NCBI GenBank assembly: GCA_038214755.1
Contig: JBBQRQ010000007.1
Coordinates: 21,298 to 85,297 of the forward strand
Direction: 5' to 3'
Source of the DNA: Verrucomicrobiota bacterium
Lineage (GTDB): Bacteria > Verrucomicrobiota > Verrucomicrobiia > Limisphaerales > CANJXF01
Length of the DNA stretch: 64,000 nucleotides
Each line of letters opens with the position of its first letter. Position 1 is the stretch's first letter. A program made the translations under genes and the position numbers. The notes beneath the pieces are model-generated. The model saw only the letters and a list, made by a program, of their open reading frames with translations, did not search any database and had not been told where the DNA came from. Shown here piece by piece: positions 12,658 through 41,900 of the stretch.

Positions 12658-14817
12658 CTACTTCGGCCGTTTCTTGAATGCCTCTTCGTTCTCTTTTTCC
12701 GTGACCTCGCTGAAGGTGCCGTTGTCCTGCCGAATCCAAAGACTTTTCCAGGCGAACTCCGCCAGCCGCATGTCGCGGCGCTGATCCATGAACGCCTGGA
12801 GCACTTTCTCGCCATCGGTTCCGAGCTTGAGCAGCGCGTTTCCCACAGGCCGATAGCCCCAGTCGGCGTCGGCGCGCTGACAGCCAGCGCCGAGCTTCGC
12901 ATAGAGATTTTTCAACGCTTCGAGAATCTTCGGACGCAGCGGGTCCAATTCCTTTGCACGGCTCGTGGCAATCACGCCCAGCGAAGTTGCGGCGCGGTCG
13001 GACACCACGGGATCGTCATTACGGGTGGCTTCGATGAGCACTTCCACGGCTTTGGGGCTGCGGGAAACGTTGGCCAGTGCCTCGGCGGCAGCGAAGCGGA
13101 CGGGGCGCTCGGAATCGTTTAGCCCCTTCGCCAAGGTCGGCACCAACTCCTCGTTCGCTGTGCGGCGGAACGTGCGCATGGCCGTGAGGCGGACCATTGG
13201 GTTCTTGCTCTCGACGGCAGCAGTAGCGAGTTCGGCGCGCGGGAACGGCTGGATTTTCGTCAGGGCGATAACTGCACTCTCTACCAGCGGATGCGTGCCC
13301 GCCCGGTCAACGGCCGCGAGCAGTTTGGCAGCGCTTTCGGGCCGATTGAGTTCGCGCAAAGCTTCCGCGGCCACGCAGCGCACGCCATTCTCGGCGTCCT
13401 CCAGACCCGCCTCGATGATCGGCAGAGCTTGCAGGTCTTTCGATTTGCCTAGCGCCAGCAGGGCCATCCGGCGGACGAGCAGGTTCGCATCTTTGGTCAG
13501 CGGCGTGAGGTCGGCGACGGTGGCCTTGGTTTTTCCGTGGATAATCTGCGAGAGCGCTTTGAGCCGTGGCACATCGTCTTTTCCCCGCAAGACATCGAGC
13601 GGCTGCGCGGGTAGGTTGGCCCGGTCGAGGTAGGCGTCGTCTTCGCCCACGGCGATCGCTGTCGCCACGCCTCGGTCGTGAAATGGTTTCCAGCGTTCGG
13701 CATGAGGACTTGAGGTGATAGCGGAGACGGAAGTCCTCGTTTGCCGCGTCAGCCAGAGCAGGTCTTCCGTCGCGTGCAACTGCATCGCGGAACTGCCATA
13801 CGCGATGAATTCGTCCACGATGCCCTCGCGCACCCAGGCCTCGAGATCGAAGTAGATGTGGCCGCCGGTCATCATCAACTCCGGCACGTTCCATGGCTGC
13901 GGGAAATGCGTCTGCCCCGGGTTGATGAACATGCCGAGCTTCTTGCCGCTCTTGGCGAGTTCCGCTTTCAGTTCGCGCAGATATTGCGTGACGTATTCGC
14001 CGCGCAACGCATACCAGTCATCGCGGCTGGCCATGCGCGTGAATGGCTTCGCGCGGATGTCGAGGCCGGTGCGTCTCTTGAACTCTTTCACGATCGGCTC
14101 ATTGAAGCCAAACTCGTCCTGGAATCGTGTGCTGAAGTTCTCGGCGTAGGTGAGAAATATCATCCCATCATAGCCGTCGCGCTTCATAAACTTCATGTGC
14201 AAATCCACCAATGCGCGTCGCGCCTCGGGATAAGCAAACTCAATCGGCCCACCTTGGCGCAGCACGCCGTGGCGGTCCATGGGCACCCATTCGGGATGCG
14301 CCAGCCGAAGGCGCGACTCGGAGTTGTGCGGGAAATCGCCAGAGCATGGCGTGTCTGCTGAACTGCCCCAATCAAACATCGTGGCGACACCCCAAATCTC
14401 CATCCCGCGCCGATGCGCCGCTTCAACTGCCGTGCGATCAGGATCGACCTCCTTGTATAGCCGGTGGCACCATTTCCACCACTCAGCGTAACGACAGTTC
14501 TCCTCACGGAAGAGAAATGTGTCCATCCAGGTTGCCTCTTCCAGTCCGCGCCAGTAAACGCGCCGCACGCCTATTTTTTCCAGCAAATTAAACGACGCCT
14601 CAATCGACGCCTTTGAATCAATCGGCAACCATGACCCGAGCCAGTGATTGTCGCCGGTACTGATGAAGCAGTCGAAGATGACGGTTTTAGATGGCGTGGA
14701 TTCGGCGGCGACCAACGGGACGACGAGCGCAAACAGCAGCAGCGCAATGATCACGCCGAGGCCGCGCAGGAAGTGGCGGCGGTTCAGGAGCCAGTTTTGG
14801 GTAAGAATGTTGCTCAT
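12658..14817 (-). CDS. Tat-signal protein with GHL10/DUF187-like TIM barrel plus C-terminal HEAT repeats
   Basis: NRRHFL signal; GVRRVYWRG...HPEW...AYPEAR...GYDG; repeated LxDxxxxVRxxAAxAL HEAT motifs. Confidence 0.75.
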   Translation of the reverse strand: MSNILTQNWLLNRRHFLRGLGVIIALLLFALVVPLVAAESTPSKTVIFDCFISTGDNHWLGSWLPIDSKASIEASFNLLEKIGVRRVYWRGLEEATWMDTFLFREENCRYAEWWKWCHRLYKEVDPDRTAVEAAHRRGMEIWGVATMFDWGSSADTPCSGDFPHNSESRLRLAHPEWVPMDRHGVLRQGGPIEFAYPEARRALVDLHMKFMKRDGYDGMIFLTYAENFSTRFQDEFGFNEPIVKEFKRRTGLDIRAKPFTRMASRDDWYALRGEYVTQYLRELKAELAKSGKKLGMFINPGQTHFPQPWNVPELMMTGGHIYFDLEAWVREGIVDEFIAYGSSAMQLHATEDLLWLTRQTRTSVSAITSSPHAERWKPFHDRGVATAIAVGEDDAYLDRANLPAQPLDVLRGKDDVPRLKALSQIIHGKTKATVADLTPLTKDANLLVRRMALLALGKSKDLQALPIIEAGLEDAENGVRCVAAEALRELNRPESAAKLLAAVDRAGTHPLVESAVIALTKIQPFPRAELATAAVESKNPMVRLTAMRTFRRTANEELVPTLAKGLNDSERPVRFAAAEALANVSRSPKAVEVLIEATRNDDPVVSDRAATSLGVIATSRAKELDPLRPKILEALKNLYAKLGAGCQRADADWGYRPVGNALLKLGTDGEKVLQAFMDQRRDMRLAEFAWKSLWIRQDNGTFSEVTEKENEEAFKKRPK

Positions 14818-14913
14818 GGTCGTGCGGGGGCAGCGTTTTTGGAATAGTTCGTTGAGCGCGAGAGATTCGACGAGCGTGGTGGAATTGGAAATCCAACATG
14901 CTCGCCATTGAGT

Positions 14914-15678
14914 TTACTTCCGAACGGATAGTGTAATTTCCAACTGATCCATGGAAATCGTGCCGGTGACCTCATTGGAAAATCCTAAAAAACAGAAGCC
15001 ATGACAGAAACTCCCCTTGAGAGCCTGATCCAGATTTGCTGGGCTTGTCGGTGTAGCCGACCAGGTTCGTTGCCAAAGAGACTCCTCGTTCGTCAGAGTA
15101 AAGGTTTGTTTAGGCCCCCAACTGCCTTGTTGAATCTGGAGCGGATGCCCCGTATAAACCCACCGTGTGCCGTTAAAAGCCCAGAAAAAGCACTTCGCGC
15201 CCTTCAAATCCAGCCCATCTCCTCGCAGGTAAACGGACACCTTGGCGTTTCGTAAGTCCAATTCTCCACGGCCAAAAGTCGTTACCTTGAACGGGACATC
15301 GCCATTCCCCCAATCCCGGTAGAGTATTTTTAATTCGGGTAAAATTAATTTTAAATTCCGGTAGAGGATGAAAGGGAAAATTATCTGAGGACTCTCCGGT
15401 GTATCAATGCGCCACCGGGAATCGTCGGCCCAAATGTGGCCAGAATTCGTGACGCCTCCAGTCTTTTCCCAGGTTACCGGATAGAACGAATTCCCGCCAC
15501 TGGCGATACCTCCATTATAGTCATAGATATACCAACCTTCCGGGCCGTTTTCAAAGCTGCTTTCCAGGGTCCGCTGTGGCTGCGCATGGGCGCAATTAAA
15601 AGAAAGCCCAATGCAAATAAGTCCCGACATGGTGGCTGCCATCTTCCGTAGTGTGATCCGGCATGTAATTTCAGCCAT
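14914..15678 (-). CDS. Secreted hypothetical protein (start uncertain, 15642-15861)
   Basis: Signal-like GLICIGLSFNCAHAQ; domain with LDLRNAKVSVYLRG resembles part of 19225-21036. Confidence 0.7.
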   Translation of the reverse strand: MAEITCRITLRKMAATMSGLICIGLSFNCAHAQPQRTLESSFENGPEGWYIYDYNGGIASGGNSFYPVTWEKTGGVTNSGHIWADDSRWRIDTPESPQIIFPFILYRNLKLILPELKILYRDWGNGDVPFKVTTFGRGELDLRNAKVSVYLRGDGLDLKGAKCFFWAFNGTRWVYTGHPLQIQQGSWGPKQTFTLTNEESLWQRTWSATPTSPANLDQALKGSFCHGFCFLGFSNEVTGTISMDQLEITLSVRK

Positions 15679-15885
15679 GCGGTTATAAGTGCGGGCGATC
15701 ACGGCACAGACATCGGCGGCTGCGACGAAGATTGGAAGCAGATGGATCGTTCTCATTTTACTTTCGTTGGATGTTGCTAATTTTTTGCCGCTCGGCGGGT
15801 GCTGTTCATTGAAACTGGTTCTTTGTTCCCTTCGTTCGCTTCTCTTGAGCCGCCCGGACAAGGTCGTCCAATTCTCAAGAAACTG

Positions 15886-16743
15886 TCATGGCTTGGTGTG
15901 TTCCGGGAAATCCTTCGCGTAGCGTCCGAGCAGCTTCGACACGTCGTTTGGCATGACGTAAATCTTGCCGCGGATTTTCTTCGTCTCGCCAGCCCGCAAG
16001 CCGCCGAGCCGAAAATCCGCATGCAGACAGCGGCCCACGCCCTGGAAAAGTTCCTGATAAGGTTCCCAGGCGGTTGCCCAAATCAGTTTCTCGTCACCAC
16101 TGAAGCAGCCGATGAGGCCGTTGCTCGGCACGAGCCGGCTGAGCGGGCGCGGATTCACATCGGTGCGCGGCACGTGTGCCGGGCACCAGACCTGGCCGGG
16201 AACGTAGCGCGCGCGCTTCGCCCAATCGCGCGTCGGCATCCGCTCCAGTTTGCCATTGAGGAACAGAAAACACTTGGGCAAATAATCATCGAGGTCTTTG
16301 CTCTTCGGATCATTGAAGCCGGTGAAGTCGCCGAGGCGCGGACACGCCTGCGCCCAATGCGCCTCGGAGCGCGTGGTGTTGGGATTGCTCGCGACGAGTT
16401 GGAAGTCCACCTCATCATCTTTCGCCGTGATGGTGTGCTCGACGATCACACCGTCGATGAGCGCGTCCTTGAGTTTGAGCACTTTTTTGTCGTCGCTCAA
16501 TGAAACGAATGCCGACGCATGCTTGATGACTGTGTGTTCGATCCAATCGGCGTCGGTCGAGCCGGCGCGACAATACGCTTCGAGGTAGTTAATGCGAATC
16601 GCGCCGCCGGGAAGCTGCGGCCCATGGACGATGAGAAAATTATTAGTGCGCGAAAGCGTGAGGCCGGTCGGTGACTCTGCTCGGACCGCTACTAAATGAA
16701 CAAACGTGGCGGCCACCGTCAGGATGCGAGAATAGTTGCTCAT
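15886..16743 (-). CDS. Conserved secreted hypothetical protein
   Basis: Signal peptide, 285-aa ORF co-oriented in the cluster (YLEAYCRAGSTD, LFQGV..CLHADFR). Confidence 0.75.
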   Translation of the reverse strand: MSNYSRILTVAATFVHLVAVRAESPTGLTLSRTNNFLIVHGPQLPGGAIRINYLEAYCRAGSTDADWIEHTVIKHASAFVSLSDDKKVLKLKDALIDGVIVEHTITAKDDEVDFQLVASNPNTTRSEAHWAQACPRLGDFTGFNDPKSKDLDDYLPKCFLFLNGKLERMPTRDWAKRARYVPGQVWCPAHVPRTDVNPRPLSRLVPSNGLIGCFSGDEKLIWATAWEPYQELFQGVGRCLHADFRLGGLRAGETKKIRGKIYVMPNDVSKLLGRYAKDFPEHTKP

Positions 16744-16810
16744 AGGTTGCTCTGGTTTGCGCCGAAACGGCCTTTCAGGAGGATTGTCTTCAGTCGAAAA
16801 AACGTTCTGT

Positions 16811-17497
16811 TCACACGACCTCCAGCATCCTCGGCCTCACGCTCCGTAACGCCTCGGCATACTTGGCGCCGCAGGCCAGCCCGCGATAGCGCGCGAGCGC
16901 CGTCTTGGAGTCTATCGCACCATTTTTTGCGGGATCAAAAGGCGCGTTCATCATGAAAGCAAAGAGGCCTCCGAGCCACTTGGTGGCAAGCGGCCATTCG
17001 TCGGTGACATCAACGTAGGTATCGGGAGTGAAGTCGATGGTGTGACTGGGGCCGTTGTCGAACCAGAAGATCTGGCTTGGAGCGCGCGCGTTCTCTTTGC
17101 CGATGAGGCGCGCAGGCTGGGTCAGAGCGGCGTGCGCGATGGCACTGGCGGCCTCGTGGTCGGGGTTGCGGTCGTGACGCCAGAGCATAAAGGCGGTATC
17201 CGGCGCAACCTCGGCGACCACTTCGGCCACGGCGCGTTTGGTGGCGAGCGTAGGCTCGAAGCCCATGCTCGCGTGCTTGAGAAAGCGCATTTCGATGCCA
17301 CACTCCTTCGCCATGTGGATGCTGAGGTCGATGAGCTGCTGCTCGCGGCTTCGCACAGGTGGCCAGTTGGTGTAGTCGCCGATGAGGTTGAGAATGACCA
17401 CGCGATAATGCTGGCGCACGGCTTTCAGGAGAACTCCGGAAATTCCGAAGGGGCAGTCATCGTAGTGGGCACCGATGGCCAGGATGCTCTTGGGCAT
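16811..17497 (-). CDS. PIG-L family deacetylase
   Basis: ILAIGAHYDD, xPDH, PDTYVDVT, YAEAL. Confidence 0.85.
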   Translation of the reverse strand: MPKSILAIGAHYDDCPFGISGVLLKAVRQHYRVVILNLIGDYTNWPPVRSREQQLIDLSIHMAKECGIEMRFLKHASMGFEPTLATKRAVAEVVAEVAPDTAFMLWRHDRNPDHEAASAIAHAALTQPARLIGKENARAPSQIFWFDNGPSHTIDFTPDTYVDVTDEWPLATKWLGGLFAFMMNAPFDPAKNGAIDSKTALARYRGLACGAKYAEALRSVRPRMLEVV

Positions 17498-31137: not shown

Positions 31138-31779
31138 ATGTTATCCGAAAAAGTCTACAAGAAAGTTAAGTCGATGATCTACGATGGACACTTGCAGCCA
31201 GGTGAGCGTCTGGTGGAGCGAGATCTTTCCCGGAAGCTAGGCACAAGCCGCATTCCCTTGCGTGAGTCTCTGGTTCGTCTTGAATCCGAAGGGTTAGTAC
31301 GCAGCATCCCGAACAGCGCCTCTTACGTTGAGGATTTTTCCCCGTCAGACATTTTGGAAATGTATTCGATGCGACTCGTGCTGGAGCCCTTGGCGGCGCG
31401 ACTGGCCACGCTGCAGCATGAGGATTCCTTGTTGGACAAACTGCGCAGGCTTTGCGAACTGATGACCACCTGCACAAGAAACTGTGATTGGACTGGACTT
31501 GATCGCGCCGACTACCAGTTTCATCGCTTGATCGTCGGCGCATCAAGCCATAAACTTTTGATTCGTACCTATGACAACTGCCATATCCAAGTCACCGGCA
31601 GCCGCCCTTCATACGCTCACTTGAAGCTCCTTACCCCTGATACTACCGCTAAAGAACACGATGTCATCATGCAGGCTATTGGAAAATGGGATGCCCACGC
31701 TGCGGAGGAAGCTACCCGCGATCACGTAAGACTTGCTCTCGGTCAACTGGAGGAATACTTAGGAGTACGGCTGAAATAA
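31138..31779 (+). CDS. GntR family (FCD domain) transcriptional regulator
   Basis: LQPGERLVERDLSRKLGTSRIPLRESLVRLESEGLV; D..FH...EH..I..AI. Confidence 0.95.
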   Translation: MLSEKVYKKVKSMIYDGHLQPGERLVERDLSRKLGTSRIPLRESLVRLESEGLVRSIPNSASYVEDFSPSDILEMYSMRLVLEPLAARLATLQHEDSLLDKLRRLCELMTTCTRNCDWTGLDRADYQFHRLIVGASSHKLLIRTYDNCHIQVTGSRPSYAHLKLLTPDTTAKEHDVIMQAIGKWDAHAAEEATRDHVRLALGQLEEYLGVRLK

Positions 31780-32275
31780 AGGATCGGGGCATTAATGCCA
31801 ATGCTACGGCACCAAACATATCCATCCGGGCATCCTCGCTCTTCCACGGAACACGTTTTGGTGGCAACCGGAATCCGAGTTCATCCGAAAATTTGTCGGC
31901 AATGATTTGAGCGATCTGATGTTTGGTGCCGTGTCCATCAGGAACAAAGGTACGACTCACCTGCTCGCGCGGAAACAACAGGACAGTGACATTGCGTTTT
32001 TCCGCCCGGAAGATGATTCGCTTGGTGAGCATCCGAATCCTCGTTGAACGCCGGAACGGTTTAATGGAAGTATCTTCAAGAACCAGTACGTCAGGCTCAT
32101 AATGCTCGATCATCTCTCTTACCCTCGCAATTGATCCATTATTCTTGTCTCCATCAATTGCCTTCAGACCCCAATCGGCCAAGATGTTCTGTCCTTCAAG
32201 GAGCGCAAAACCGAGACCTCGAGTTGAGAGAGCTATTCCAAGGATACGAGGATATTTCGGGAGAGTCTTTGTCAT
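31712..32275 (-). CDS. RuvC/RNase H-like fold hypothetical protein
   Basis: RILGIALSTRGLGFALLEG..DWG; YEPDVLVLED; TKHQIA; MFGAVALAL. The last 68 nt run antisense into gntR. Confidence 0.6.
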   Translation of the reverse strand: MTKTLPKYPRILGIALSTRGLGFALLEGQNILADWGLKAIDGDKNNGSIARVREMIEHYEPDVLVLEDTSIKPFRRSTRIRMLTKRIIFRAEKRNVTVLLFPREQVSRTFVPDGHGTKHQIAQIIADKFSDELGFRLPPKRVPWKSEDARMDMFGAVALALMPRSFISAVLLSIPPVDREQVLRDRG

Positions 32276-32286
32276 GATGTTCTGGG

Positions 32287-32631
32287 TTAAGAAGCCGCAA
32301 GGTCAGCGAATGCTTCGCGTTTACGAACGCTCTGGGAACTAGGTTTGCCGAAATCTTTTCTTTCCGATAAAATCTTGGCCCGCTCGGTTACTTCTCCTTC
32401 GACTTTTTGATAGAGACCAGCAAAGAGTTCACTGGTTGATCTTTTGTAAACGACCTCGAACGCCAAGGCGGTTCTCAAACTTGGCTCACGAGCAAACCGT
32501 TCGTAACGGGAAATCTTGGCTCCGCTTCTAGTGCCCAACAGAAAAGCCACTTCATCTTGGGATAAAGCAAGGCGCTTTCGGTTTGCTTTGAGGTAATTGG
32601 GTAGTTGTGGCGAAGACATGGAATTGATCAA
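32287..32631 (-). CDS. XRE-family helix-turn-helix regulator
   Basis: NYLKANRKRLALSQDEVAFLLG....ISRYE...REPSL. Confidence 0.9.
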   Translation of the reverse strand: MINSMSSPQLPNYLKANRKRLALSQDEVAFLLGTRSGAKISRYERFAREPSLRTALAFEVVYKRSTSELFAGLYQKVEGEVTERAKILSERKDFGKPSSQSVRKREAFADLAAS

Positions 32632-32863
32632 CTCTGAATGAGTTACAAGTTACAGTATCCGATCACTCGGATTACCTCACGGGGGCAACCTTTGCCGGAA
32701 TCGGCAAGATTTTACAAAAACACCGAGCGTTTTTGCTCGGCGCTATCGGAAATATAAAAGCACATTTCTGGAGATTTGTACAGTATTCTTTGTGATTCAA
32801 CTTGCCTAAACCTACAAGCTTCACCGTCTGCCTCGCCGTATAGAGATGGGTCAGACTTAAGTG

Positions 32864-33034
32864 ATGAAAATTGAGCAGACCCAGATCGATGAGTTGAATC
32901 GCATTTGTATGGAGTCCTTTCAAAGAAATTTCTCCGAAACCGAATTACAGGAGATTGCCCAAAGGATCATTCGCTTTCTCAAGAATACCGAAGGCTTCCC
33001 CGCTCCACTTTCGCACGACGTTGACCCGGATTAA
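32864..33034 (+). CDS. Small (56 aa) recombinase-associated helical protein
   Basis: Below the track cutoff: MKIEQTQIDELNRICMESFQRNFSETELQEIAQRIIRFLKNTEGFPAPLSHDVDPD*; ends 31 nt before the recombinase start. Confidence 0.65.
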   Translation: MKIEQTQIDELNRICMESFQRNFSETELQEIAQRIIRFLKNTEGFPAPLSHDVDPD

Positions 33035-33050
33035 CGTCGTACGTTAAGCT
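33021..33050 (+). promoter_or_regulatory. Putative recombinase promoter with palindromic operator
   Basis: TTGACC (33021) - 18 nt - TAAGCT (33045); inverted repeat TTAACGT-cgt-ACGTTAA at 33031-33047. Confidence 0.5.
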
Positions 33051-33065
33051 AGAACAATCCCTTCC

Positions 33066-34904
33066 ATGACCCCCTATGTAATTTACAGTCGAAAATCGCT
33101 GGAGGATGAAGACAGTCAAGTGCAATCAATTCCGTCCCAAGAGAAGGAAATGAAATCGATTGCGGCTAAATTCAATTTGACCCTCGTCGAACCTCTGCTG
33201 AGTGAAGCCAAATCCGCCAAAGCACCTGGCCGGCTTGTTTTCAACGAGATGATGGAGCGGGTTGATAAAGGTAAAATCAAAGGAATACTTTGCTGGAAAC
33301 TTGATCGGCTTGCCCGCAATCCCGTTGACGGCGGACGGATCATTTGGGCAATCAAGCAACATGGTTTAGTCATCAAGACCCCTCACCAAACTTTCTCCCA
33401 GGCGGAGGATAACTTGATTCTCATGTATATCGAGTTTGGGATGGCTCAAAAATATGTTGATGATCTCAGTAGAAATACCACAAGAGGTTTGAAGGCCAAA
33501 GCTGAAAAGGGCTGGTACCCCGGTGTAGCTCCAATGGGATATTTAAACTCCAAGATAGAAGAACGTGGCAGTAAAACCATCCTGAGTGACCCGGAACGAT
33601 TTGCGGCTGTCCGGCGAATGTGGGATCACATGCTCACGGGCAATTTCAGCCCCGCACGCATCCAGAAGATGGCAAATGCGGAATGGGGATTTCGCACTCG
33701 CCAAACCAAACGAACGGGAGGTAAAGCCATTTCAAGAAGCACGGTCTACAAAATCTTTTCTGATCCCTTCTATTATGGTCGGTTTGAATATCCAAAAAGA
33801 AGCGGGCTATGGTATGAAGGCCAGCATGAACGGATGATTACGGAGGCAGAGTTCAACTGCGTCCAAAAGATACTTCACCGCGAGACTAATCCGCGGCCTC
33901 ATACGGAATTTGTTTTCCATTTCCGAGGATTGATTAGATGTGGAGAATGTAATTCAAGTATTACAGCCCATTGTAAGGAGCAAGTGCGTTGCACCGGGTG
34001 TCATTACAAATCGTCGGTCAAGAACCGCGCTTCCTGTTTTAAGTGTGGTCTATCACTCAATGACATGAAAGCTCCGAAGCTCAGGCAATACGCGTATTAC
34101 CATTGCACGCGCAAGCTCAATAGAGCTTGTCGCCAACAATGTATTTCTGCCGATGCCCTCGACAAGCAACTAACGGAAAAGTTGAAGGCTTACCGTCTGC
34201 CACCCGAGTTCCGGGATTGGGGCTTGAAATATATTGAAAAACTAAAGGATCAAGATCGTGCGGAGAGAAAGCAAATCTTTGAAGAACGCAGAAAGACGTA
34301 CGACCAATGTCTATCTCGCTTGGAGAATCTGGTTAAGCTCAAGACAGCCCCCGAGAATGCTGACGGCAGTCTTCTTTCCGATGAGGAGTATCAAAAACAG
34401 CGCTCCGATTTACTCAATCAGAAAGGCAGTCTAGCAATGGATACTTCCACCTTTGAGATCGAATTGGAGAGCAAGACGCGCGTGGCAAAGGAAGCCTTAA
34501 ACACGATGGGCCAAATAGCCGAACCGACCTTCGATGGGGATGTTTTGAGAAAAAGAGAGATTCTGGCTGCTCTGGGATTGAACCACGTCTTAAAGGAAAA
34601 GGAGCTAGAGATTAGGCCGGAATTTCCCTTCTCTGACTTTCCATATGATGGAAAGCAGGATCGATCTAGTATTGACCCGATTGAACCGGAAAATATGCAG
34701 GAGGGACCAGGCTTAAATGGGGATACTATCTCTCCTTGTCCGAGACTGGAGCGGGACGTGGACGAAGATCGAACCAACGCATTGAAATCGTGCCTTCAAT
34801 CAATCTGGAAAAAGATTGATCCATCATCGCCGATTTTCAATCGCTTTCCTTTTAAACTAGGGGCACCAATTGTCCCCGTTCGTCGCGGGAGACGGCTAAT
34901 TTAG
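33066..34904 (+). CDS. Large serine recombinase (resolvase + recombinase + zinc-ribbon + coiled coil)
   Basis: YSRKS catalytic Ser, ESAK..GR-like EAKSAKAPGR, WKLDRLARN, G.AP.GY, G.HE.MIT, CGEC...YYHC. Confidence 0.95.
   Translation: MTPYVIYSRKSLEDEDSQVQSIPSQEKEMKSIAAKFNLTLVEPLLSEAKSAKAPGRLVFNEMMERVDKGKIKGILCWKLDRLARNPVDGGRIIWAIKQHGLVIKTPHQTFSQAEDNLILMYIEFGMAQKYVDDLSRNTTRGLKAKAEKGWYPGVAPMGYLNSKIEERGSKTILSDPERFAAVRRMWDHMLTGNFSPARIQKMANAEWGFRTRQTKRTGGKAISRSTVYKIFSDPFYYGRFEYPKRSGLWYEGQHERMITEAEFNCVQKILHRETNPRPHTEFVFHFRGLIRCGECNSSITAHCKEQVRCTGCHYKSSVKNRASCFKCGLSLNDMKAPKLRQYAYYHCTRKLNRACRQQCISADALDKQLTEKLKAYRLPPEFRDWGLKYIEKLKDQDRAERKQIFEERRKTYDQCLSRLENLVKLKTAPENADGSLLSDEEYQKQRSDLLNQKGSLAMDTSTFEIELESKTRVAKEALNTMGQIAEPTFDGDVLRKREILAALGLNHVLKEKELEIRPEFPFSDFPYDGKQDRSSIDPIEPENMQEGPGLNGDTISPCPRLERDVDEDRTNALKSCLQSIWKKIDPSSPIFNRFPFKLGAPIVPVRRGRRLI
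34747..34775 (+). repeat. att-like direct repeat, copy 1 (inside the recombinase CDS)
   Basis: TGGAGCGGGACGTGGACGAAGATCGAACC; 28/29 identical to 35913-35941. Confidence 0.85.
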
Positions 34905-34957
34905 TCATGAGACTCTTTACTACCCGATGACCTGAACGGGAGGAGGAGAGACCTAGA

Positions 34958-35071
34958 CTACCTGTAATATCTCGTATTGATGGAGAAATTCCTTCCCTTT
35001 CTGCCGTCTTTATAAAGTAGTTTCTTCTCAGTTATTGCTTTGAATTCCTGAACTGCCTCCGTGATGATCAT
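34958..35071 (-). pseudogene. Possible degenerate second copy of the small recombinase-associated protein
   Basis: MIITEAVQEFKAITEKKLL..., with pattern similarity to 32864-33034; appears frameshifted towards the end. Confidence 0.35.
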
Positions 35072-35139
35072 TATAGTACGGTATCAAAACTGGAGTAGGA
35101 GTACAAGATTGCCGGAGGCGGCAAGAAATCTACACTGCT

Positions 35140-35168
35140 TTGCATTTTGGGTTAAAGTTTTATAGAAT
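35140..35168 (+). promoter_or_regulatory. sigma70-type promoter of hicBA (probably leaderless)
   Basis: TTGCAT - 17 nt - TAGAAT; the ATG at 35175 is 6 nt after the -10. Confidence 0.6.
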
Positions 35169-35174
35169 GAAACT

Positions 35175-35423
35175 ATGAACCAATACACCTACTCAGTCGA
35201 AATAGAAGCAGCGGAAGAAGGAGGATATGTCGCCTCTGTCCCCGCATTGCCGGGCTGTCATACGCAAGGCGAATCATTGGATGAAACAGTTGCCAATATC
35301 AAAGAAGCAATTGAAGGATTCTTACTGTCACTCGTAAAACATGGCGAGCCGATTCCTGTTGAGCGTGAGTCGAGACATCCTCTGACTATAAGCATAGGGG
35401 TACGATCTCCGCTTGCTGCATGA
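35175..35423 (+). CDS. hicB: Type II TA antitoxin HicB (short form)
   Basis: EEGGYVASVPALPGCHTQGESLDE...IKEAI...GEPIP; ATGA overlap with hicA. Confidence 0.92.
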   Translation: MNQYTYSVEIEAAEEGGYVASVPALPGCHTQGESLDETVANIKEAIEGFLLSLVKHGEPIPVERESRHPLTISIGVRSPLAA

Positions 35424-35647
35424 CGCGGTTACCTATTCTCAATTCTAAGAAAATAATTAAGGCTTTAAAACAAGCTGGTTTTGAAGAGGACATTCAACAT
35501 GGCAGTCATTTGTATTTTTGGCATCCGATAAAGAAACTAAGGACGTGTGTGCCAATTCATGCCGGCAAAGATATTGGTCGTAGCTTACTGAGAAAGATTT
35601 TAACCCAGGCTCGACTTTCAGAGGATGAATTCCGAAAATTACTCTAG
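35420..35647 (+). CDS. hicA: Type II TA toxin HicA
   Basis: IIKALKQAGF...GSH....HP....VPIH..KDI...LLRKIL.QA.LSEDEF. Confidence 0.92.
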   Translation: MTRLPILNSKKIIKALKQAGFEEDIQHGSHLYFWHPIKKLRTCVPIHAGKDIGRSLLRKILTQARLSEDEFRKLL

Positions 35648-35855
35648 ACACGAAAGGTGGTATTTTATTGCCCCGAAGTCCAAACCCAGCAAAGTGTTCC
35701 GTTCTCCTCACTCGATTAGCTGTCGAACAACATCTCTTCCTTGACCGTTTCAAAGAGAGACTGGAGTTTAAGAGCAGCTGGAGTGTTTACCTTGTTTACC
35801 ATACAAAAGTGGGTATCTCTCCTTTTTGAGGTAAACAGTCGGCCTTAGACCAAAG

Positions 35856-35881
35856 AAAAACCCCTAAGCTGAGGGGTTTTT
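35856..35881. terminator. Bidirectional intrinsic terminator-like hairpin
   Basis: AAAAACCCCT-aagctg-AGGGGTTTTT, about 30 nt before att-like copy 2. Confidence 0.7.
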
Positions 35882-35911
35882 CATGGGGGCTATTCTTGCC
35901 AATTTGGCAAC

Positions 35912-36079
35912 TTGGAGCGGGACATGGACGAAGATCGAACCGTATCATTGAAGCTTGCTTTAGAAGGAATTTGGAAAAAGATCGTTCCTTCATTGCCGAT
36001 TCTTGATCGCTACCCTTTCGTGAATGAAAAGCCAGTAATTCATGCTCTCCATCGTGATGAGAAGGGTCGTTTTGTTTAA
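35912..36079 (+). other. att-like repeat copy 2 plus an alternative recombinase C-terminal tail
   Basis: Translates as LERDMDEDRTVSLKLALEGIWKKIVPSLPILDRYPFVNEKPVIHALHRDEKGRFV*, colinear with the recombinase end LERDVDEDRTNALKSCLQSIWKKIDPSSPIFNRFPF... Confidence 0.8.
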
Positions 36080-36105
36080 GAAACAGATCCAATCAAATAA
36101 TCCTA

Positions 36106-36977
36106 GAAGCCATTTCATAAGTTAAAAATTGTAAGTGCTTTGTACTTGTACTTTTACGAAGGATTTGTGAAAAGCTGGGGATGCAAAAAGCATTCTTATC
36201 AGATGAGCAATGGAAAAAAATTGAGCCGCATTTGCCGTGCGACAAAAGTCGCGGACGGCCTTGGGCGGACAACCGCCGTGTCTTCGAAGGGCTATGGTGG
36301 ATGCTTAAGACCGGCGCACGCTGGTGCGATCTACCCAAAGAATATCCCAGCCCCAGCACCTGCTGGAGACGCTTGCGCCGCTGGGAAAAGCAAGGCGTCT
36401 GGCTCAAAATCTGGCGGCAGTTTTTATCGGAACTGGACCAGCGCGGCAAACTCGATTGGAGTGAAAGTTTTCTGGATGGCAGTTTTGCTCCGGCAAAAAA
36501 AGGGGCTTTGGCGTCGGCAAAACCAAGCGCGGCAAAGGCACGAAGTGGATGGTGGTGGTCGACGGCCAAGGTGTTCCTCTGGGAGTCCAACTGGTCAGCG
36601 CCAGCCCGGCGGAAGTGACGCTGGCGGAGAGCACGCTGCAAAAAATTTCGGTGCCGCAGCGGCGCGGACGCCCGCGCCAGCGGCCTTTGCGCGTGGTGGC
36701 CGACCGCGCTTACGACAGCGATGCCTTGCGCTGGCGTTTGCTGCAACGCGGCATGGTTTTGATCTGTCCGCATCGCAAGAACCGCCGGAAACCCTCGCGC
36801 AACGACGGACGAGAACTGCGCCGCTACCGCAAGCGTTGGAAAGTCGAACGCACCTTCGCCTGGCTGGGCAACTTCCGACGGTTGCTGGTTCGTCACGATC
36901 ATCATCTGAATATTTATGAAGCGTTTTTCCACCTCGCCTGCCTCATCATCACCCTCAGGCACTTATGAAATGGCTTC
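36106..36977 (+). mobile_element. IS5-family insertion sequence (IS427-like), 872 bp
   Basis: Perfect 20-bp inverted repeat CTAGAAGCCATTTCATAAGT (36103-36122 and 36961-36980), including the C-TA-G target; two-ORF transposase. Confidence 0.93.
36181..36968 (+). CDS. IS5 transposase, joined by a -1 programmed frameshift
   Basis: OrfA LSDEQW..IEP..GRP..DNR..GARWCDLP; slippery A7G4 at 36495-36505; OrfB GKGTKWMVVVDGQG, ADRAYDS, YRKRWKVERTFAW. Confidence 0.92.
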
Positions 36978-37054
36978 TAGTCATTCTCAGATGCTATTAC
37001 TACTCGGTTGACTCTAACTATATCACTCTCCCGCCGAATCTAAAAGAGACGGCT

Positions 37055-37303
37055 TTAGGAACTACCCCACTTGATCCAATCGCTCTGATGAATATTCGAC
37101 TGTTGGATCATTGTCTTGAGTGTTGAGATGGGATAACTCCCATGAGTAATATTCACTTCGACCCGTCTATCTTTCTCCGCACCTTCTCCGTATTTTATCC
37201 AGGCCTCATGCGAGCCTTTTAATGGTTTTAAAAATCTGAATCCGTTCTTCTTCAAAAAGTGCGTAACATCTCGATATGTCCAGTTGCGTAATTTTCTTGT
37301 CAT
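37055..37303 (-). CDS. HicA-family toxin-like protein
   Basis: YRDVTHFLKKNGF....KGSHEAW...VEV..TH...TLKTMIQQS. Confidence 0.8.
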   Translation of the reverse strand: MTRKLRNWTYRDVTHFLKKNGFRFLKPLKGSHEAWIKYGEGAEKDRRVEVNITHGSYPISTLKTMIQQSNIHQSDWIKWGSS

Positions 37304-37422
37304 GCCCCCAGAATAATTCTGAGGACCGTTGAAATACAGACGATGGGATTTGACGACAGCGGCAAGTCTTTTTTAGACGTCAAATGATCTTCCCTCCGAG
37401 GCCGTAGGGAAACCATATTCAT
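37300..37422 (-). pseudogene. Possible vestigial antitoxin C-terminus coupled to the second hicA
   Basis: 40-codon frame MNMVSLRP...DLPLSSNPIVCISTVLRIILGA*, ending in an ATGA overlap like hicB-hicA; lacks the HicB core. Confidence 0.3.
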
Positions 37423-37720
37423 TCTACTCGCAGCCGAAAGAGCGAAATGTTAGTCTGACGCACTACTGAAAGAGCATATTCCTTACTGTTGACCTTTTTC
37501 CAATTTCTGAGGACGCCACTGCCCTACACCAGAATTTACCTTGTTGCCCTGCCGTCAATTTTAGCTCGCTAACCGATCCTGCCAACGATTACACAGGGAA
37601 GAGACTGGATGATAAAGGTAAAAGATAAAAGAACCGTATTCTTCCAGGCACCAGACAGGCGTTTTATCTCTTTCGAGCGCCTGGATGTCAATTCACTTTC
37701 GCTGATTATATGCGAGTTGA

Positions 37721-37966
37721 TTACCCTTTCGACTCGCGAGGGTCTGCACTTCTAGGATAGGTACGCTCTTCTTGGAATCGAGCATTTTCCTTTTGGATTT
37801 TTACTGAACCGCCTTCCTGGCCAAGAACTTTCTTAAGCACCCCGCCTTTGGTCGCGTCCTCTTTGGTCTCGAAGGTTTTAACGACCCGGTTGGTTTTATC
37901 ATTTCCAAGGTCCCAACGGTCCTTTTTCTCGTTATATTCCAATGTGAATTTTCGTAAATTTGCCAT
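37721..37966 (-). CDS. DUF2188 domain protein
   Basis: W.L......FETKEDA....GGSVKIQKEN.RFQEERTYPR..DP..SKG. Confidence 0.8.
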   Translation of the reverse strand: MANLRKFTLEYNEKKDRWDLGNDKTNRVVKTFETKEDATKGGVLKKVLGQEGGSVKIQKENARFQEERTYPRSADPRESKG

Positions 37967-38114
37967 ATTTTTTTAAGTTAGTTCTTCGGTGGTCGACCGA
38001 GCACCGATATTGTTACAATGATATCAGTTATGGCAGGAATGTAAAGCTTGGTAGAATAGCGTTCTTGCCTTCCGTTCGATAACCCAGCATCTTGGCATGG
38101 TTGAGAACTGTCCT

Positions 38115-38594
38115 TTACAAGAGTTGTTCCATCAAGCCGGAAATCGCCCTAATCAATGGGTGAATCTCTCCCAAGAGGCATTTGAATTCGCCTCTACCGC
38201 GCGAGCTCGGTTTGCTAAAGGTGATCCAAAGACCAAAAAACGATTCTTTCCACTATCGCATCGAACTTAACCTAATCGACAAAAGCTTAGCATTGAAGCC
38301 AAGAAACCATTCTTTATCCTAGAAAATTCCGTGCGAGGTGAGGGATGTGAAAATCAAGAAATCGAACCTGAAATAATCCATGTGGAACGAGGACAGAAAG
38401 AGGCAAGGGCCTCTTCTGGTCCCGGATGGTGCGCCATCCGGGACGAAGATCGAACATTTCCATTAAAAAGCGGAGAGATAGTTAAGTCAATTTACCACTT
38501 CTTTCGAAGCGAATGTTCGTCGCCTAAATTTAAGTTGTCCGAATGGGCCGATTTAGGTCATGAAGAAAGCATGACAGAACAAGAAAAAATCTAA
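38115..38594 (+). pseudogene. Frameshifted C-terminal fragment of a second large serine recombinase, containing att-like copy 3
   Basis: ...QWVNLSQEAFEFASTARARFAKGDPKTKK/ILSTIASNLT/DK/LSIEAKKPFFILE...IEPE...WCAIRDEDRTF, aligning to GDVLRKREILAALGLNHVLKEKELEIRPEFPF...IEPE...DEDRT of 33066-34904; core GGACGAAGATCGAAC at 38441-38455. Confidence 0.75.
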
Positions 38595-38641
38595 AGTGGG
38601 TCGAACTTGCCGGAAGTGATAAGAATCATCACCTGCTCTGT

Positions 38642-38865
38642 TTACAGCAATTTTTGAAAGTCTTCCTCAGATACTTCTATTTGTTTCAAAATGAGTTTGA
38701 GCAATGAACGTTTTGGATCCTTACCATGCTTTGGCACGCACGTTGTAACCCCTTTATAGGATGTTTCAAAATAAGGTGACTACCGCGTTGCCTATCCACC
38801 ACAAAGCCGACTCGTTCGAGAGCTTGAATAATTTTACGTGCCGATAGAGTCGGCTGGCTGCCAAT
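38642..38865 (-). pseudogene. Frameshifted hicA copy
   Basis: PTLSARKIIQALERVGFVVDRQRGSHLILKHPIKG / TTCVPKHGKDPKRSLLKLILKQIEVSEEDFQKLL*; one frame break and no clear start codon. Confidence 0.8.
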
Positions 38866-38955
38866 TTCAAATATAAAAAATGACCGGTTGCGGACGGGAT
38901 TTAGATAAAAGCTTGTTGCCAAGCGATCTTTTGGTTAAAAACTGCGGTCGACCCA

Positions 38956-41900
38956 ATGGCAGTGATTTGCCCAATCCTTTTCTGCATTTTTGGTGCGGCG
39001 CTCGGGGTGGCTCACGCGGAAGCCGCGTTGCGCCCGCCAGTGCATCCGCGCCGCAACGTGGAGGATTTTCCGGTGGTGCCGGCCAAGTACGTTCGCTTCA
39101 CAATTCTCAAGGCCACCAGTAGCGAGCCTTGCTTGGATGAACTAGAGATTTATCCCGAGGAGGACGCAACGCGCAACATTGCGCTGGCCAAGGGCGGCGC
39201 GCGGGCGACGGCTTCAGGCTCTTTGCCGGGTTTCCAGATTCACCAACTCGAATTCGTCAATGACGGAAGATATGGAAACGGCCATAGCTGGATCGCCGAT
39301 AAAGCCAGTGCCTGGGTCCAAATCGAACTTCCGGAGGTGGCGCTTATCAACCGCGTGGTTTGGGGTCGTGACCGCGAGAACAATTTCGTCGACCGCTTGG
39401 CGGTGGAGTATGGCATTGAGGTATCTACCAACGGCAGCACTTGGTGCCCCGTCGCTTCCTCCGCTGACCGGTCGCCGTTGGTCATAGGCGGAACGTTCGC
39501 CGGAGTCCAACCCATGACACGGCAAATCGTGACTCGGTTCGCGCCTGTCAATAGCAGCTTCTCATTCGAATCGCAGAACAACTCCCCCGATTACAGAATC
39601 GACCGCTGGCAGACCGAGGACGGCCTGCCGGGGAATACGGTGACTTCGATACTTCAGACGCGCGACGGGTATCTCTGGATTGGTACGTTTGGCGGGTTGG
39701 CGCGGTTTGACGGGGTGCGGTTCAAACGATTTGGCGAGGCGGAGGGACTGAAGAACAATCGCGTTCTCTGCCTGTGCGAAGATCGGCAGGGCAACCTCTG
39801 GGTGGGCAGCGAGGGCGGCGGGCTTTTTCAACTTCGTGACGGTGTGTTTACTGAACTGACGACCCGCGACGGTCTGCGGCACGATGTCGTCACGGCGTTG
39901 GCGGAGGGCCGGAGCGGCCGCCTTTGGATTGGAACCTACGCTGGCCTACAGTGCTGGCAGGAAGGACACTTTGTTATGGACCCAGCGGAACCGTTTCAGT
40001 CTTCCTTCCCGGTGACGCGGTTGCTCGTGGACCGCGCTGGCACGGTCTGGATGGTCGTTAACGGTCAGTTGCGCACGGTGGTGGCCGGGCACGTGGTCAC
40101 TCCCAAACTGGGGGGTGAACCGAGCGGTCAACTGGCGATCTCCGCGCTGCACGAAGGCAAATCAGGGCAGCTCTGGCTCGGCGGCAACAGTGGATATGTG
40201 GCGTCGTCTAGCAACGGCGTCCTGAGGGTCTTACCACTGCCGCAGGAAATGCCGCCTGACAATATTTGGGAAGTGCTGGAGGCAGGGACTGGCGACATAT
40301 GGATGGGCACCGCCTCGAGTGGCTTGCGGCGCTGGCGCAACGACCGCGTTTTGGCGCTCACCACCCAAGAGGGGATGGCTGAGAATTCCGTACGTTGCCT
40401 CTTTGAAGATCGGGAAGGAAACCTTTGGGTGGGCACCAATGGCGGGGGACTACAGCGGCTCAAGCCGAAAACTCTTCGACTCGTGACCACTCGTGATGGG
40501 CTGGCCCACAACGTCGTGATGTCACTCGCCGAAGAGGGTAGTGGGGAGTTGTGGATTGGTTCTAATTGTGGGGGGCTGAGCGCGCGACGCAAAGGAGTAT
40601 TCACTCCCGCATACTTGAACTACCTGCTCGACAATGAATGCATTTGGTCGGTGCTAAGCGCTCGGGACGGTGCGCTGTGGGTGGGCACTTGGAACAACGG
40701 ACTGTTTCGCAAAACTGGGGAAAAGCTGGAGCAGTTTAAATTGGCCAACTCCTACAGCGATGAACCAGTGCTGGCGTTATGCGAAGACCGCAACGAAGGA
40801 ATGTGGGTGGGAACCTACCAGGACGGGCTGAAATTTTTTCGGGACGGCAAGTTTACCTCGTATCGCATAACAAATGGATTGTCGGCAAATTTCGTTACGG
40901 CGTTGGTGCAGGACGTGAAGAGTAGGCTTTGGATTGGGACGGCCGGGGGCGGACTAAATTGTTTCGCGGACGGCGTGTTCAAAGTCCTGAAGCGCCGAGA
41001 CGGATTGGGCAGCGATTTCATTCGCGCTCTCCACATTGACGCGAATGGAGTGCTCTGGATTGGCACAGGCGGAGGCGGAGTGAGCCGGCTAAAGGACGGG
41101 GAGTTAAAGACGATCAGCACCCGCCAAGGGCTGCTTGATGATGTTATCTCGCAAATTCTTGAGGACGACAATGGTCATTTTTGGTTCGGTTCGAATCGTG
41201 GCATTTTCTACGTGTCCAAGGCGGAATTAGAGCGGGTAGCCGAGGGACGTGTAGGCTCACTTAATCCCATCACCTTTGGAAAAGCGGAGGGAATGGAGAA
41301 TCTCGAATGCACCGGCGGCTTCTGCCCGGCGGGCCTGAAGACACGAGACGGCAGGTTATGGTTTTCGACAGTCAAGGGACTGGTGACCATTGACCCGAAA
41401 AACATTCGCAGCAACGATTTGCCTCCGCCGGTTGTCATCGAGCAGGTCATTGTTGACGGGGTTCCCGCAGAAGTTGATGTAAAGAGGCTCACTTCTCAGA
41501 TCCGAAACTCGAAATTGGAGATTCGAAATCGTCGGGGCATGTATGCATCGAATAATACGACTTTGAGAATTCACCCCCGGGCAAAACGCGTCGAGTTGCA
41601 TTATACCGCGCTGAGTTTCACTTCACCGGAGAAGGTGCGGTTTCGCTACCGACTTGACGGTCTTGATTCGGACTGGGTAGAAGCCGACGGACGACGTATC
41701 GCGCAGTATCCATTTCTGCCGCCGGGACCGTACCGGTTCCGCGTTACCGCCTGCAACGAGGACGGCGTCTGGAGCCAGAGCGAGGCAGTGCTGGCGCTAA
41801 CCTGCCTGCCGGCTCTCTGGCAGACTTGGTGGGTTCGGCTGCTGGGGGCCGCGCTAGTGTTGGGCGGAGCTGGTTGGACTGTGAAAGTGGGGGCAACGCA

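Follow-up and report, generated by a model that had tools for sequence, protein, structure and literature searches.

A large serine recombinase gene and its repeated site and tail modules in a low-GC islet of a Verrucomicrobiota bacterium

The recombinase and the block repeated downstream of it

We analysed a stretch of 64,000 nucleotides from a Verrucomicrobiota bacterium (assembly GCA_038214755.1, contig JBBQRQ010000007.1, positions 21,298 to 85,297 of the forward strand), in the following called the window. It contains the gene of a large serine recombinase, and a short sequence block inside this gene occurs again twice downstream of it. The gene encodes an intact protein of 612 amino acids (aa; 33066–34904, + strand). 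The Pfam domain Resolvase covers residues 5–149 (E=1.3e-18; 67.9 bits, cut-off 23.3), Recombinase scores 37.3 bits (E=3.3e-9; cut-off 21.1) and Zn_ribbon_recom reaches 21.7 bits, which is under its cut-off of 25.3. Among 33 homologues, residues R9, K10 and S11 are nearly invariant, and we take S11 to be the catalytic serine; C292, C295, C309, C324, C327, C347 and C355 are invariant. Long helices span residues 362–483 in an AlphaFold2 model. The protein has the architecture of a large serine recombinase, that is, a catalytic domain followed by a Recombinase domain, a zinc ribbon and a coiled coil. In total, 3520 of 8000 scored candidates are homologues at E≤0.001. We rejected the idea of a typical phage integrase, as only one of the eight matches on viral contigs was a real relative, with 50% identity.

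The 15-base core GGACGAAGATCGAAC is present at 34760, 35926 and 38441, each time on the + strand. Three matches were reached in none of 100 shuffles, and a scan of the whole assembly (5,106,438 bases) found the core at these three positions only. It is part of a 29-base block, which is the only segment that all sites have in common. Site 1 (34747–34775, + strand) lies inside the recombinase gene and resembles the 3' end of a tRNA. The block of site 2 (35913–35941) is identical to it at 28 of 29 bases, and the homology between the two sites extends beyond the block into the tail (79% identity over 107 bases). At all three sites, the residues DEDRT are read in an open frame. In the enzyme, they begin the attached C-terminal module, here called tail 1 (DEDRT...RRLI; 34761–34904, + strand), which is conserved in the homologues of the closest subfamily (subfamily 1). 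Site 2 is followed by an orphan tail, tail 2, that is open to its stop codon and has no recombinase body upstream (site and tail together 35913–36079, + strand). Tail 2 has 58% identity to tail 1 over 43 residues. A search with the 55-aa open reading frame (ORF) of the orphan tail against proteins of 30–97 aa returned only itself; this search requires shared words of five residues and says little. When sites 1 and 2 are joined in silico, 1166 bases are lost and an open frame of 615 aa is left.

These results agree with a preliminary description of the locus, which had reported three direct copies of the core, 28 of 29 bp shared by the first two, an open DEDRT frame and tail at each copy and an attachment-like (att-like) site inside the 3' end of the recombinase gene itself. 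It had also proposed that recombination between copies 1 and 2 would release 1166 bp and leave an intact enzyme, and that tail 2 is preceded by a terminator only; a palindrome (35896–35910) is found there as well. The third copy had been described as a further spare tail, and this part has to be corrected. Site 3 (block 38427–38455) and tail 3 belong to a 5'-truncated pseudogene of a second recombinase (38085–38594, + strand), of which only residues 444–609 are left. With tblastn, 38085–38582 matches these residues of a second subfamily in one frame with one in-frame stop (queries P0036, P0048, P0057, P0034 and P0117; E from 1e-27 to 8e-18), and in the alignment of 33 proteins tail 3 is of the type of this subfamily 2. 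Site 3 is thus part of a second recombinase gene that is dead and reduced to its last quarter, and tail 2 is the sole true orphan in the window.

In the same alignment, the close subfamily (65–75% identity) keeps D-E-D-R-T followed by LKxALxxIWKKxDP...FxRYPF, and in the second subfamily (about 48% identity) the conserved motif is DDVRT, with ...AAALIYAHFKKEFG or ...VKSIYxFF... behind it. The AlphaFold2 model was built on these 33 proteins and has a mean predicted local distance difference test score (pLDDT) of 77.9. It contains a linker at residues 530–564 with pLDDT below 50 and a confident helix at 565–583, and pLDDT is around 90 over 571–600. In the model, the position of the block thus coincides exactly with the transition from a disordered linker to a structured C-terminal module.

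Sites, tails and tRNA ends in related loci

A set of 160 loci with homologues (80 from genomes and 80 from metagenomes) was retrieved, and we searched the 100 loci that have a complete recombinase ORF, each with its own last 60 residues. Extra tail copies were found in 17 of these 100 loci, of which 16 have them downstream on the same strand and one has them upstream; the opposite strand carries none. Where the flank is at least 1 kb long, extra tails occur downstream in 16 of 78 loci and upstream in one of 77; for flanks of at least 9 kb, the numbers are 10 of 41 and one of 43. Two loci (L094 and L164) have two extra tails apiece. Most orphan tails have no recombinase body upstream, and a partial body is found in L093. 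The preliminary description had suggested looking for such modules behind homologous recombinases, and they do recur there, downstream and with variable cargo.

In 12 of 16 pairs, the homology between the gene and the orphan copy starts 12–15 bases before the DxxRT codons, usually at TG; in three of the remaining four pairs, it can be followed by eye to this start point across internal mismatches. In most of the 16 orphan sites printed, nine of which were aligned, the block is preceded by a two-way terminator-like hairpin, about 12 bases, a palindrome (TTGCCAAnTTGGCAA or TTGGTATnnATACCAA) and 2–4 bases. This palindrome is nearly identical in the locus of the window, L094 and L109, which cover two subfamilies. 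To the right, the repeat passes through the tail to a second palindrome, TTGCCG-N4-CGGCAA. Most pairs of such joints are 74–93% identical; the joint repeat of L157 has 196 bases at 93% identity, and in L132 a perfect direct repeat of 284 bases surrounds 2.7 kb of cargo.

Furthermore, close relatives differ in their tails. L015 and L026 have 91% identity up to ...CGAACC and 51% beyond, and L116 and L156 have 86% and then 38% after ...GAAC(C), with different tail types. Since the tails of close relatives switch exactly at the motif, recombination at the site has rewritten tails in nature, as had been proposed for the C-terminus of this enzyme. The comparison indicates that exchange has occurred in nature on either side of the 29-base block.

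Between attached and orphan tails, the pooled proportion of differences is 0.40 at synonymous sites (pS) and 0.18 at nonsynonymous sites (pN), with 119, 93 and 169 changes at the three codon positions and thus an excess at the third. The ratio of nonsynonymous to synonymous substitution rates (dN/dS), which the preliminary description had put forward as a check, is 0.16–0.55 in 13 of the 16 tail pairs. Frame and stop codon are intact in most orphan tails, and eight of 16 have exactly the length of the tail of the gene, at 4–60% synonymous divergence. Together, dN/dS and the retained frames rule out a long neutral decay of the orphan tails; the underlying selection may have acted before or after their displacement. 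We also looked at the positions of contig ends, which lie at most 250 bases after the core in 21 of 110 cases and at most 250 bases before the gene start in seven of 110, a difference that is suggestive of an assembly break at the site but not a clean test.

In 19 of 72 loci of relatives, the 3' end of the recombinase ORF lies within a tRNA gene in convergent orientation, as detected with ARAGORN (Asn 8, Gln 5, Trp 4, Ser 1 and Ile 1). At these loci, the C-terminus (...LDSNQ or ...ESNPR) is encoded by the antisense of the T-loop, and the enzymes are distant relatives of the one in the window. When the block of the latter is reverse-complemented (GGTTCGATCTTCGTCCACGTCCCGCTCCA), its best match is the 3' end of tRNA-Gly(tcc) from the same genome; the two have GGTTCGAT and CCCGCTCCA in common, with four extra bases between them. 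No tRNA or transfer-messenger RNA (tmRNA) was found in the 64-kb window with ARAGORN, and a search of 32000–40000 against Rfam at E≤1 yielded nothing at the sites and only a chance match to a small nucleolar RNA inside an insertion sequence (described below). In L093 (3180–3640), an intact tRNA-Thr(cgt) lies on the other strand and its 3' end is fused to a recombinase remnant at the position of the block; the next block and tail start 20 bases past the 5' end of this tRNA. This fusion links the tRNA-free subfamily to real tRNA targets. Judging by these matches, the block is a putative mimic of a tRNA end and itself derived from a tRNA.

We conclude that the repeats are probably the joints of stacked units that were made by site-specific recombination, and that some of these units have no recombinase. 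Two other explanations of the repeats have to be weighed here. According to the first, they are debris of full-length tandem elements whose downstream bodies were removed by ordinary deletions, so that the units lacking a recombinase were never mobile and the orphan tails have no role. This would account for the truncated, stop-containing remnant at site 3 and for the partial body that precedes the second tail of L093, and it would fit the insertion sequence and the broken hicA gene as signs of decay within the islet, as well as source contigs that carry no sign of recombination. However, random deletions should not stop at one position in 12 of 16 pairs, and they should not leave the same module of terminator and palindrome before most orphan sites in loci of different subfamilies. 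The orphan tails that are in frame and, in half of the pairs, of exact length despite up to 60% synonymous divergence also argue against debris, as does the perfect repeat of L132. We thus consider this explanation unlikely.

According to the second, cargo was swapped by general homologous recombination, for which joints of 170–284 bases and the recombinase unit served as anchors of a hotspot of defence genes, with the recombinase itself uninvolved. The joints are indeed long enough for such exchange, and those of L132 are identical. In addition, near-identical loci in some cases diverge past the stop codon or the palindrome rather than at the block, and four loci have a common right flank beyond a variable region of 4.4–9.4 kb. 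However, the identity of most joint pairs makes them a poor substrate, the edge of homology at the block is sharp and constant, and close relatives change from one tail to another exactly at the motif. Distant relatives and L093 moreover join the gene to a tRNA at the same point with no long homology. Homologous recombination therefore appears a very unlikely source of the pattern.

The islet, its conserved unit and its cargo

The GC content is 42–47% from 31.8 to 38.8 kb, excluding the insertion sequence, compared to 52–63% outside. The leftmost gene of the conserved recombinase unit is a 187-aa ORF (31712–32275, − strand) with tblastx matches to L094, L013, L015, L026 and L098. The homology to relatives begins at about 31780–31795, adjoining the stop codon of the flanking GntR gene, and the left edge of the unit is sharp both here (about 31780) and in L156 when compared to six relatives (8668). 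The 187-aa ORF belongs to no Pfam family, with a weak match to RuvC (E=0.002) that is far under the cut-off, and it has no relative among solved structures at E≤1 except a chance match. It is followed by an XRE-type helix-turn-helix regulator (32287–32631, − strand; Pfam HTH_31 and HTH_3), by palindrome A (TTGCCGGAATCGGCAA, 32692–32707), which is located 374 bases upstream of the recombinase start, and by a conserved 57-aa ORF directly upstream of the recombinase (32861–33034, + strand), which has no Pfam or NCBIfam family. This upstream trio is conserved in 44 loci: the 187-aa ORF and the regulator form one neighbour cluster (88 members, 44 loci) and the 57-aa ORF forms another (46 members, 44 loci). 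We know of no role in serine recombination for any of the three. No gene family is conserved downstream, where the largest wholly downstream cluster has seven members in seven loci.

Downstream of the recombinase, palindrome B (TTGCCGGAGGCGGCAA, 35109–35124) lies 205 bases past the stop codon and just before hicB, and a promoter-like match (35139–35168) follows it. The cargo of the first unit there consists of hicB (35175–35423) and hicA (35420–35647), both on the + strand. These adjacent genes overlap by four bases and score 44.7 bits (HicB_lk_antitox) and 65.5 bits (HicA_toxin) against a Pfam cut-off of 27, which makes them a predicted HicAB toxin–antitoxin pair. The right-end module of this unit (35855–35910) comprises the two-way terminator-like hairpin (35855–35882) and palindrome C (TTGCCAATTTGGCAA, 35896–35910). 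Past tail 2, there is an insertion sequence (36103–36980, + strand) with perfect inverted ends of 20 bases, a two-ORF transposase (Pfam DUF4096 and DDE_Tnp_1) and 60% GC, which the preliminary description had missed. The summed contig depth at its position reaches up to 40.3 in one bin compared to about 20 elsewhere, which points to several copies or relatives of the insertion sequence in the sample.

A HicA-like ORF (37055–37303; 24.1 bits, under the cut-off of 27) and a DUF2188 ORF (37721–37966; 31.8 bits, over its cut-off) follow on the − strand. Beyond the pseudogene of the second recombinase, the degenerate palindrome D (38607–38624) is found 13 bases past the stop codon of tail 3, where that of the relatives is intact, and next to it lies a frameshifted hicA pseudogene (38642–38922, − strand). 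Its two halves are in different frames (ORFs 38686–38922 and 38642–38737), and the match to HicA_toxin covers profile positions 1–31 of 58. The cargo is thus the one that had been described earlier, namely hicBA, then hicA and DUF2188, and a hicA pseudogene past site 3, with the second HicA under the cut-off.

Palindromes of the family TTGCCG-N4-CGGCAA or TTGCCAA-N-TTGGCAA flank the recombinase unit at fixed distances and are nearly absent from the genome otherwise; exact TTGCCG-N4-CGGCAA occurs three times in the genome, two of them in this locus. Such palindromes, with a stem starting with TTG, are present in 53 loci. In many of them, one palindrome lies 300–460 bases ahead of the recombinase start and another one 15–70 bases past the stop codon.

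To describe the cargo of relatives, 54 ORFs located between sites were scanned against Pfam. They include Shedu (SduA_C), a STAND NTPase with a metallophosphatase, ThiF with an E2-like protein and DUF2188, three NYN-domain proteins, a SIR2-like match under the cut-off, an HATPase_c_3 protein, an M23 peptidase, a dCTP-deaminase-like protein with a methyltransferase and several XRE regulators. The cargo between sites is thus variable and, by its family matches, looks like phage-defence or toxin–antitoxin genes.

Some further observations concern single loci. In L164, both cassettes end in near-identical 131-aa ORFs (5014–5409 and 8283–8678, − strand) with a weak LexA-type DNA-binding match, and the N-terminus of these ORFs resembles the small ORF that precedes the recombinase. 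The cassettes may thus carry their own copy of the regulator of the recombinase unit. In L156, the cargo beside the recombinase is a pair that resembles the Gabija type, with an OLD-like ATPase and a UvrD-like helicase (13239–17080), named by eye from the translations. The common right-hand segment beyond the variable 4.4–9.4 kb (17090–18948 in L156, also present in L025, L150 and L043) consists of about 550 non-coding bases with long inverted repeats, followed by a 434-aa ORF with an ATPase-like motif found by eye; a search of this segment against Rfam returned nothing. The 160 loci come from bins of Verrucomicrobiota, candidate phyla radiation groups, Nitrospirota, Acidobacteria, Dehalococcoidaceae and archaea, and this wide spread reflects either broad movement or loose binning.

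Growth of the stack and comparison with known systems

We observe the anatomy of the islet in the window and, among relatives, its recurrence, the common position of the junctions and the exchange of tails at the motif. In the explanation that we favour, this low-GC islet of about 7 kb (about 31.78–38.95 kb) would be a head-to-tail stack of small mobile units. Each joint would be a copy of the attachment site of a family of large serine recombinases, with the 29-base block in the enzyme's own gene. The first unit of the stack would consist of the 187-aa ORF, the XRE regulator, the 57-aa ORF and the recombinase, and the second one, which has no recombinase, of tail 1, a palindrome, hicBA, the terminator and a second palindrome. 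Insertion of this second unit at the block would have given the enzyme its new tail 1 and pushed the older tail 2 downstream. The remainder would be older debris, that is, the insertion sequence, the HicA-like ORF and DUF2188, the remnant of a second recombinase (last quarter and tail) and the broken hicA. Presumably, this recombinase catalyses the events, with a crossover in or next to the 29-base block; units that have no recombinase would move with help in trans, and the array may still be active. The stack may have grown either by capture of cassettes at the enzyme's own site or by accretion at a tRNA that is now lost.

Several observations weigh against stacking by site-specific recombination. 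No joint was seen at any of the three sites in contigs from the probable source, which is the only sequencing run that contains the stretch; rare events would escape such a comparison. To the left of the recombinase unit, no copy of block or tail is present, and tblastn with the tails gave no convincing further copy in the genome. As relatives also have an upstream tail in only one of 77 loci, the same site does not account for the arrival of the recombinase unit itself. Phage serine integrases show a classic attP x attB asymmetry that does not fit the sites described here, whose left and right arms are alike throughout, and we found no single scheme of attP, attB, attL and attR that accommodates all junction types. 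L156 and L150, which are 96–98% identical in the recombinase unit and the upstream flank, diverge about 30 bases past the stop codon, and L156 and L025 diverge just past the downstream palindrome. The remnants with a partial recombinase body (site 3 and L093) indicate that plain decay also shapes the arrays, and the low dN/dS could have accrued before the tails were displaced.

In the contigs from the source run, the match extends to 33441, within the recombinase gene, and to 36045, near the end of tail 2, and is followed by unlike sequence; such contigs may come from related elements that are present in this sample. The eight other genomes of the same genus share no usable flanking DNA with the islet, so that no empty site could be compared. 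We also considered a classic island geometry, with the orphan tail far to the left of its own island. This was rejected, as the core occurs nowhere else, tblastn was unconvincing and upstream tails are limited to one of 77 loci.

The closest parallel to stacked units at a recombinase gene is provided by the ssrA islands of Dehalococcoides (McMurdie et al. 2011, PMC3146451). In the available part of that paper, the 3' end of dsiB always overlaps the att repeat (attL), with insertion in the T-loop, and the islands are arranged in tandem, bounded by direct repeats and in some cases devoid of an integration module. The locus in the window is similar in both respects, as its recombinase overlaps the repeat with the 3' end and its units are arranged in tandem, some with no integrase. 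For DsiB, the target is the tmRNA gene, the repeat has 20 bases and the overlapped C-terminus is described, in the same part of the source, as divergent and probably non-functional (PMC3146451); its authors asked there whether full enzyme function needs the right downstream sequence. In contrast, the joints described here have 170–284 bases, encode a conserved tail that is predicted to be helical and appears to be under purifying selection, and are flanked by palindromes. Furthermore, no tRNA or tmRNA lies in the 64-kb window, whereas 19 of 72 relatives do meet the tRNA feature. Units of 1–8 kb with defence-like or toxin–antitoxin cargo are a further difference, and no second ORF with a Resolvase domain like DsiA was found among the 15 ORFs scanned at 31–39 kb. 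We compared the two systems by description rather than by the sequence of DsiB.

Stacks are also known from the staphylococcal cassette chromosome (SCC, including SCCmec), where CcrAB or CcrC insert cassettes at the 3' end of the gene rlmH and restore this end. Direct repeats separate the cassettes in SCC arrays, and cassettes that have no recombinase genes occur. The locus resembles such arrays in its stacked units with direct repeats in between, some of them lacking a recombinase, but the target is the recombinase's own gene and rlmH is not involved. The NCBIfam models CcrB, CcrC and CcrA score 56, 54 and 51 bits, far under their cut-offs of 900, 900 and 700; thus, the enzyme is not a Ccr.

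Integrons combine the tyrosine recombinase IntI, an attI site, folded single-strand attC sites and a common promoter for promoterless cassettes. The locus shares with them a conserved recombinase beside a one-sided variable array and repeated sites between small units, whereas it differs in having a serine recombinase, a coding tRNA-like block instead of attC and units with their own regulators. Defence genes are described as integron cargo in the available part of a recent preprint (10.1101/2024.07.02.601686). A strict version of this likeness would be a platform that uses its own site as attI, captures circular cassettes with the newest one nearest to the gene and stores tails as a bank of working C-termini. 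The extra tails, which are nearly all downstream (16 of 78 compared to one of 77), the conserved recombinase unit with a variable downstream side, the end module common to units lacking a recombinase, the predicted structured helix of the tail and the mixture of tail types within the array of L164 would all fit such a platform. Against this stand the cassettes with their own regulators and the promoter-like match of the first cargo unit, which are unlike integron cassettes, and L093, which ends at a real tRNA-Thr as would be expected from ordinary accretion at tRNAs. A strict platform is thus quite unlikely. Of the integron-like accretion of cassettes that the preliminary description had in mind, the repeated modules of site and tail with variable cargo were recovered, whereas the third copy is not a spare tail but part of a dead recombinase.

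The preliminary description had further pointed out that some integrases carry the recombination site within their own gene. This is documented for the 'suicidal' SSV-type integrases of archaea, where the available part of the source places the site inside the integrase reading frame (PMC7253208). As in the locus studied here, recombination at the site within the gene changes that gene. As far as that text goes, however, these enzymes are tyrosine recombinases whose gene is split on integration, whereas here the partner site would supply a tail and the gene would stay whole.

As the available text on the ssrA islands makes clear, the principle of stacking is not new (PMC3146451). What is particular in the present case is the combination of a tRNA-free array, a joint that encodes a conserved and structured tail, flanking palindromes and the exchange of tails at the site; our literature search found no description of tail-coding joints or tRNA-free arrays in this recombinase family. 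A broader reading, which is possible but doubtful, is that a large serine recombinase captures genes in an integron-like manner and independently of tRNAs, at the boundary of linker and helix in its own gene, so that each cassette swaps the C-terminal helix and shelves the old one. The shelved joints of block, tail and palindrome would then remain available for further landings and offer alternative tails that tune the enzyme, for example its direction, and the system would assemble cassettes of phage-defence and toxin–antitoxin genes in Verrucomicrobia and other phyla.

Stacks made by serine recombinases at tRNA and tmRNA genes are known, and the overlap between gene and site has been treated there as incidental. 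In the present case, gene and site overlap in a conserved structured tail, which is copied in every unit and exchanged among relatives. Should the tail influence activity or direction, the enzyme would be a natural example of a recombinase with a gene product that is altered at every event, and such an effect would also be useful for the engineering of serine integrases. The arrays are furthermore a place to seek compact defence genes in poorly studied phyla.

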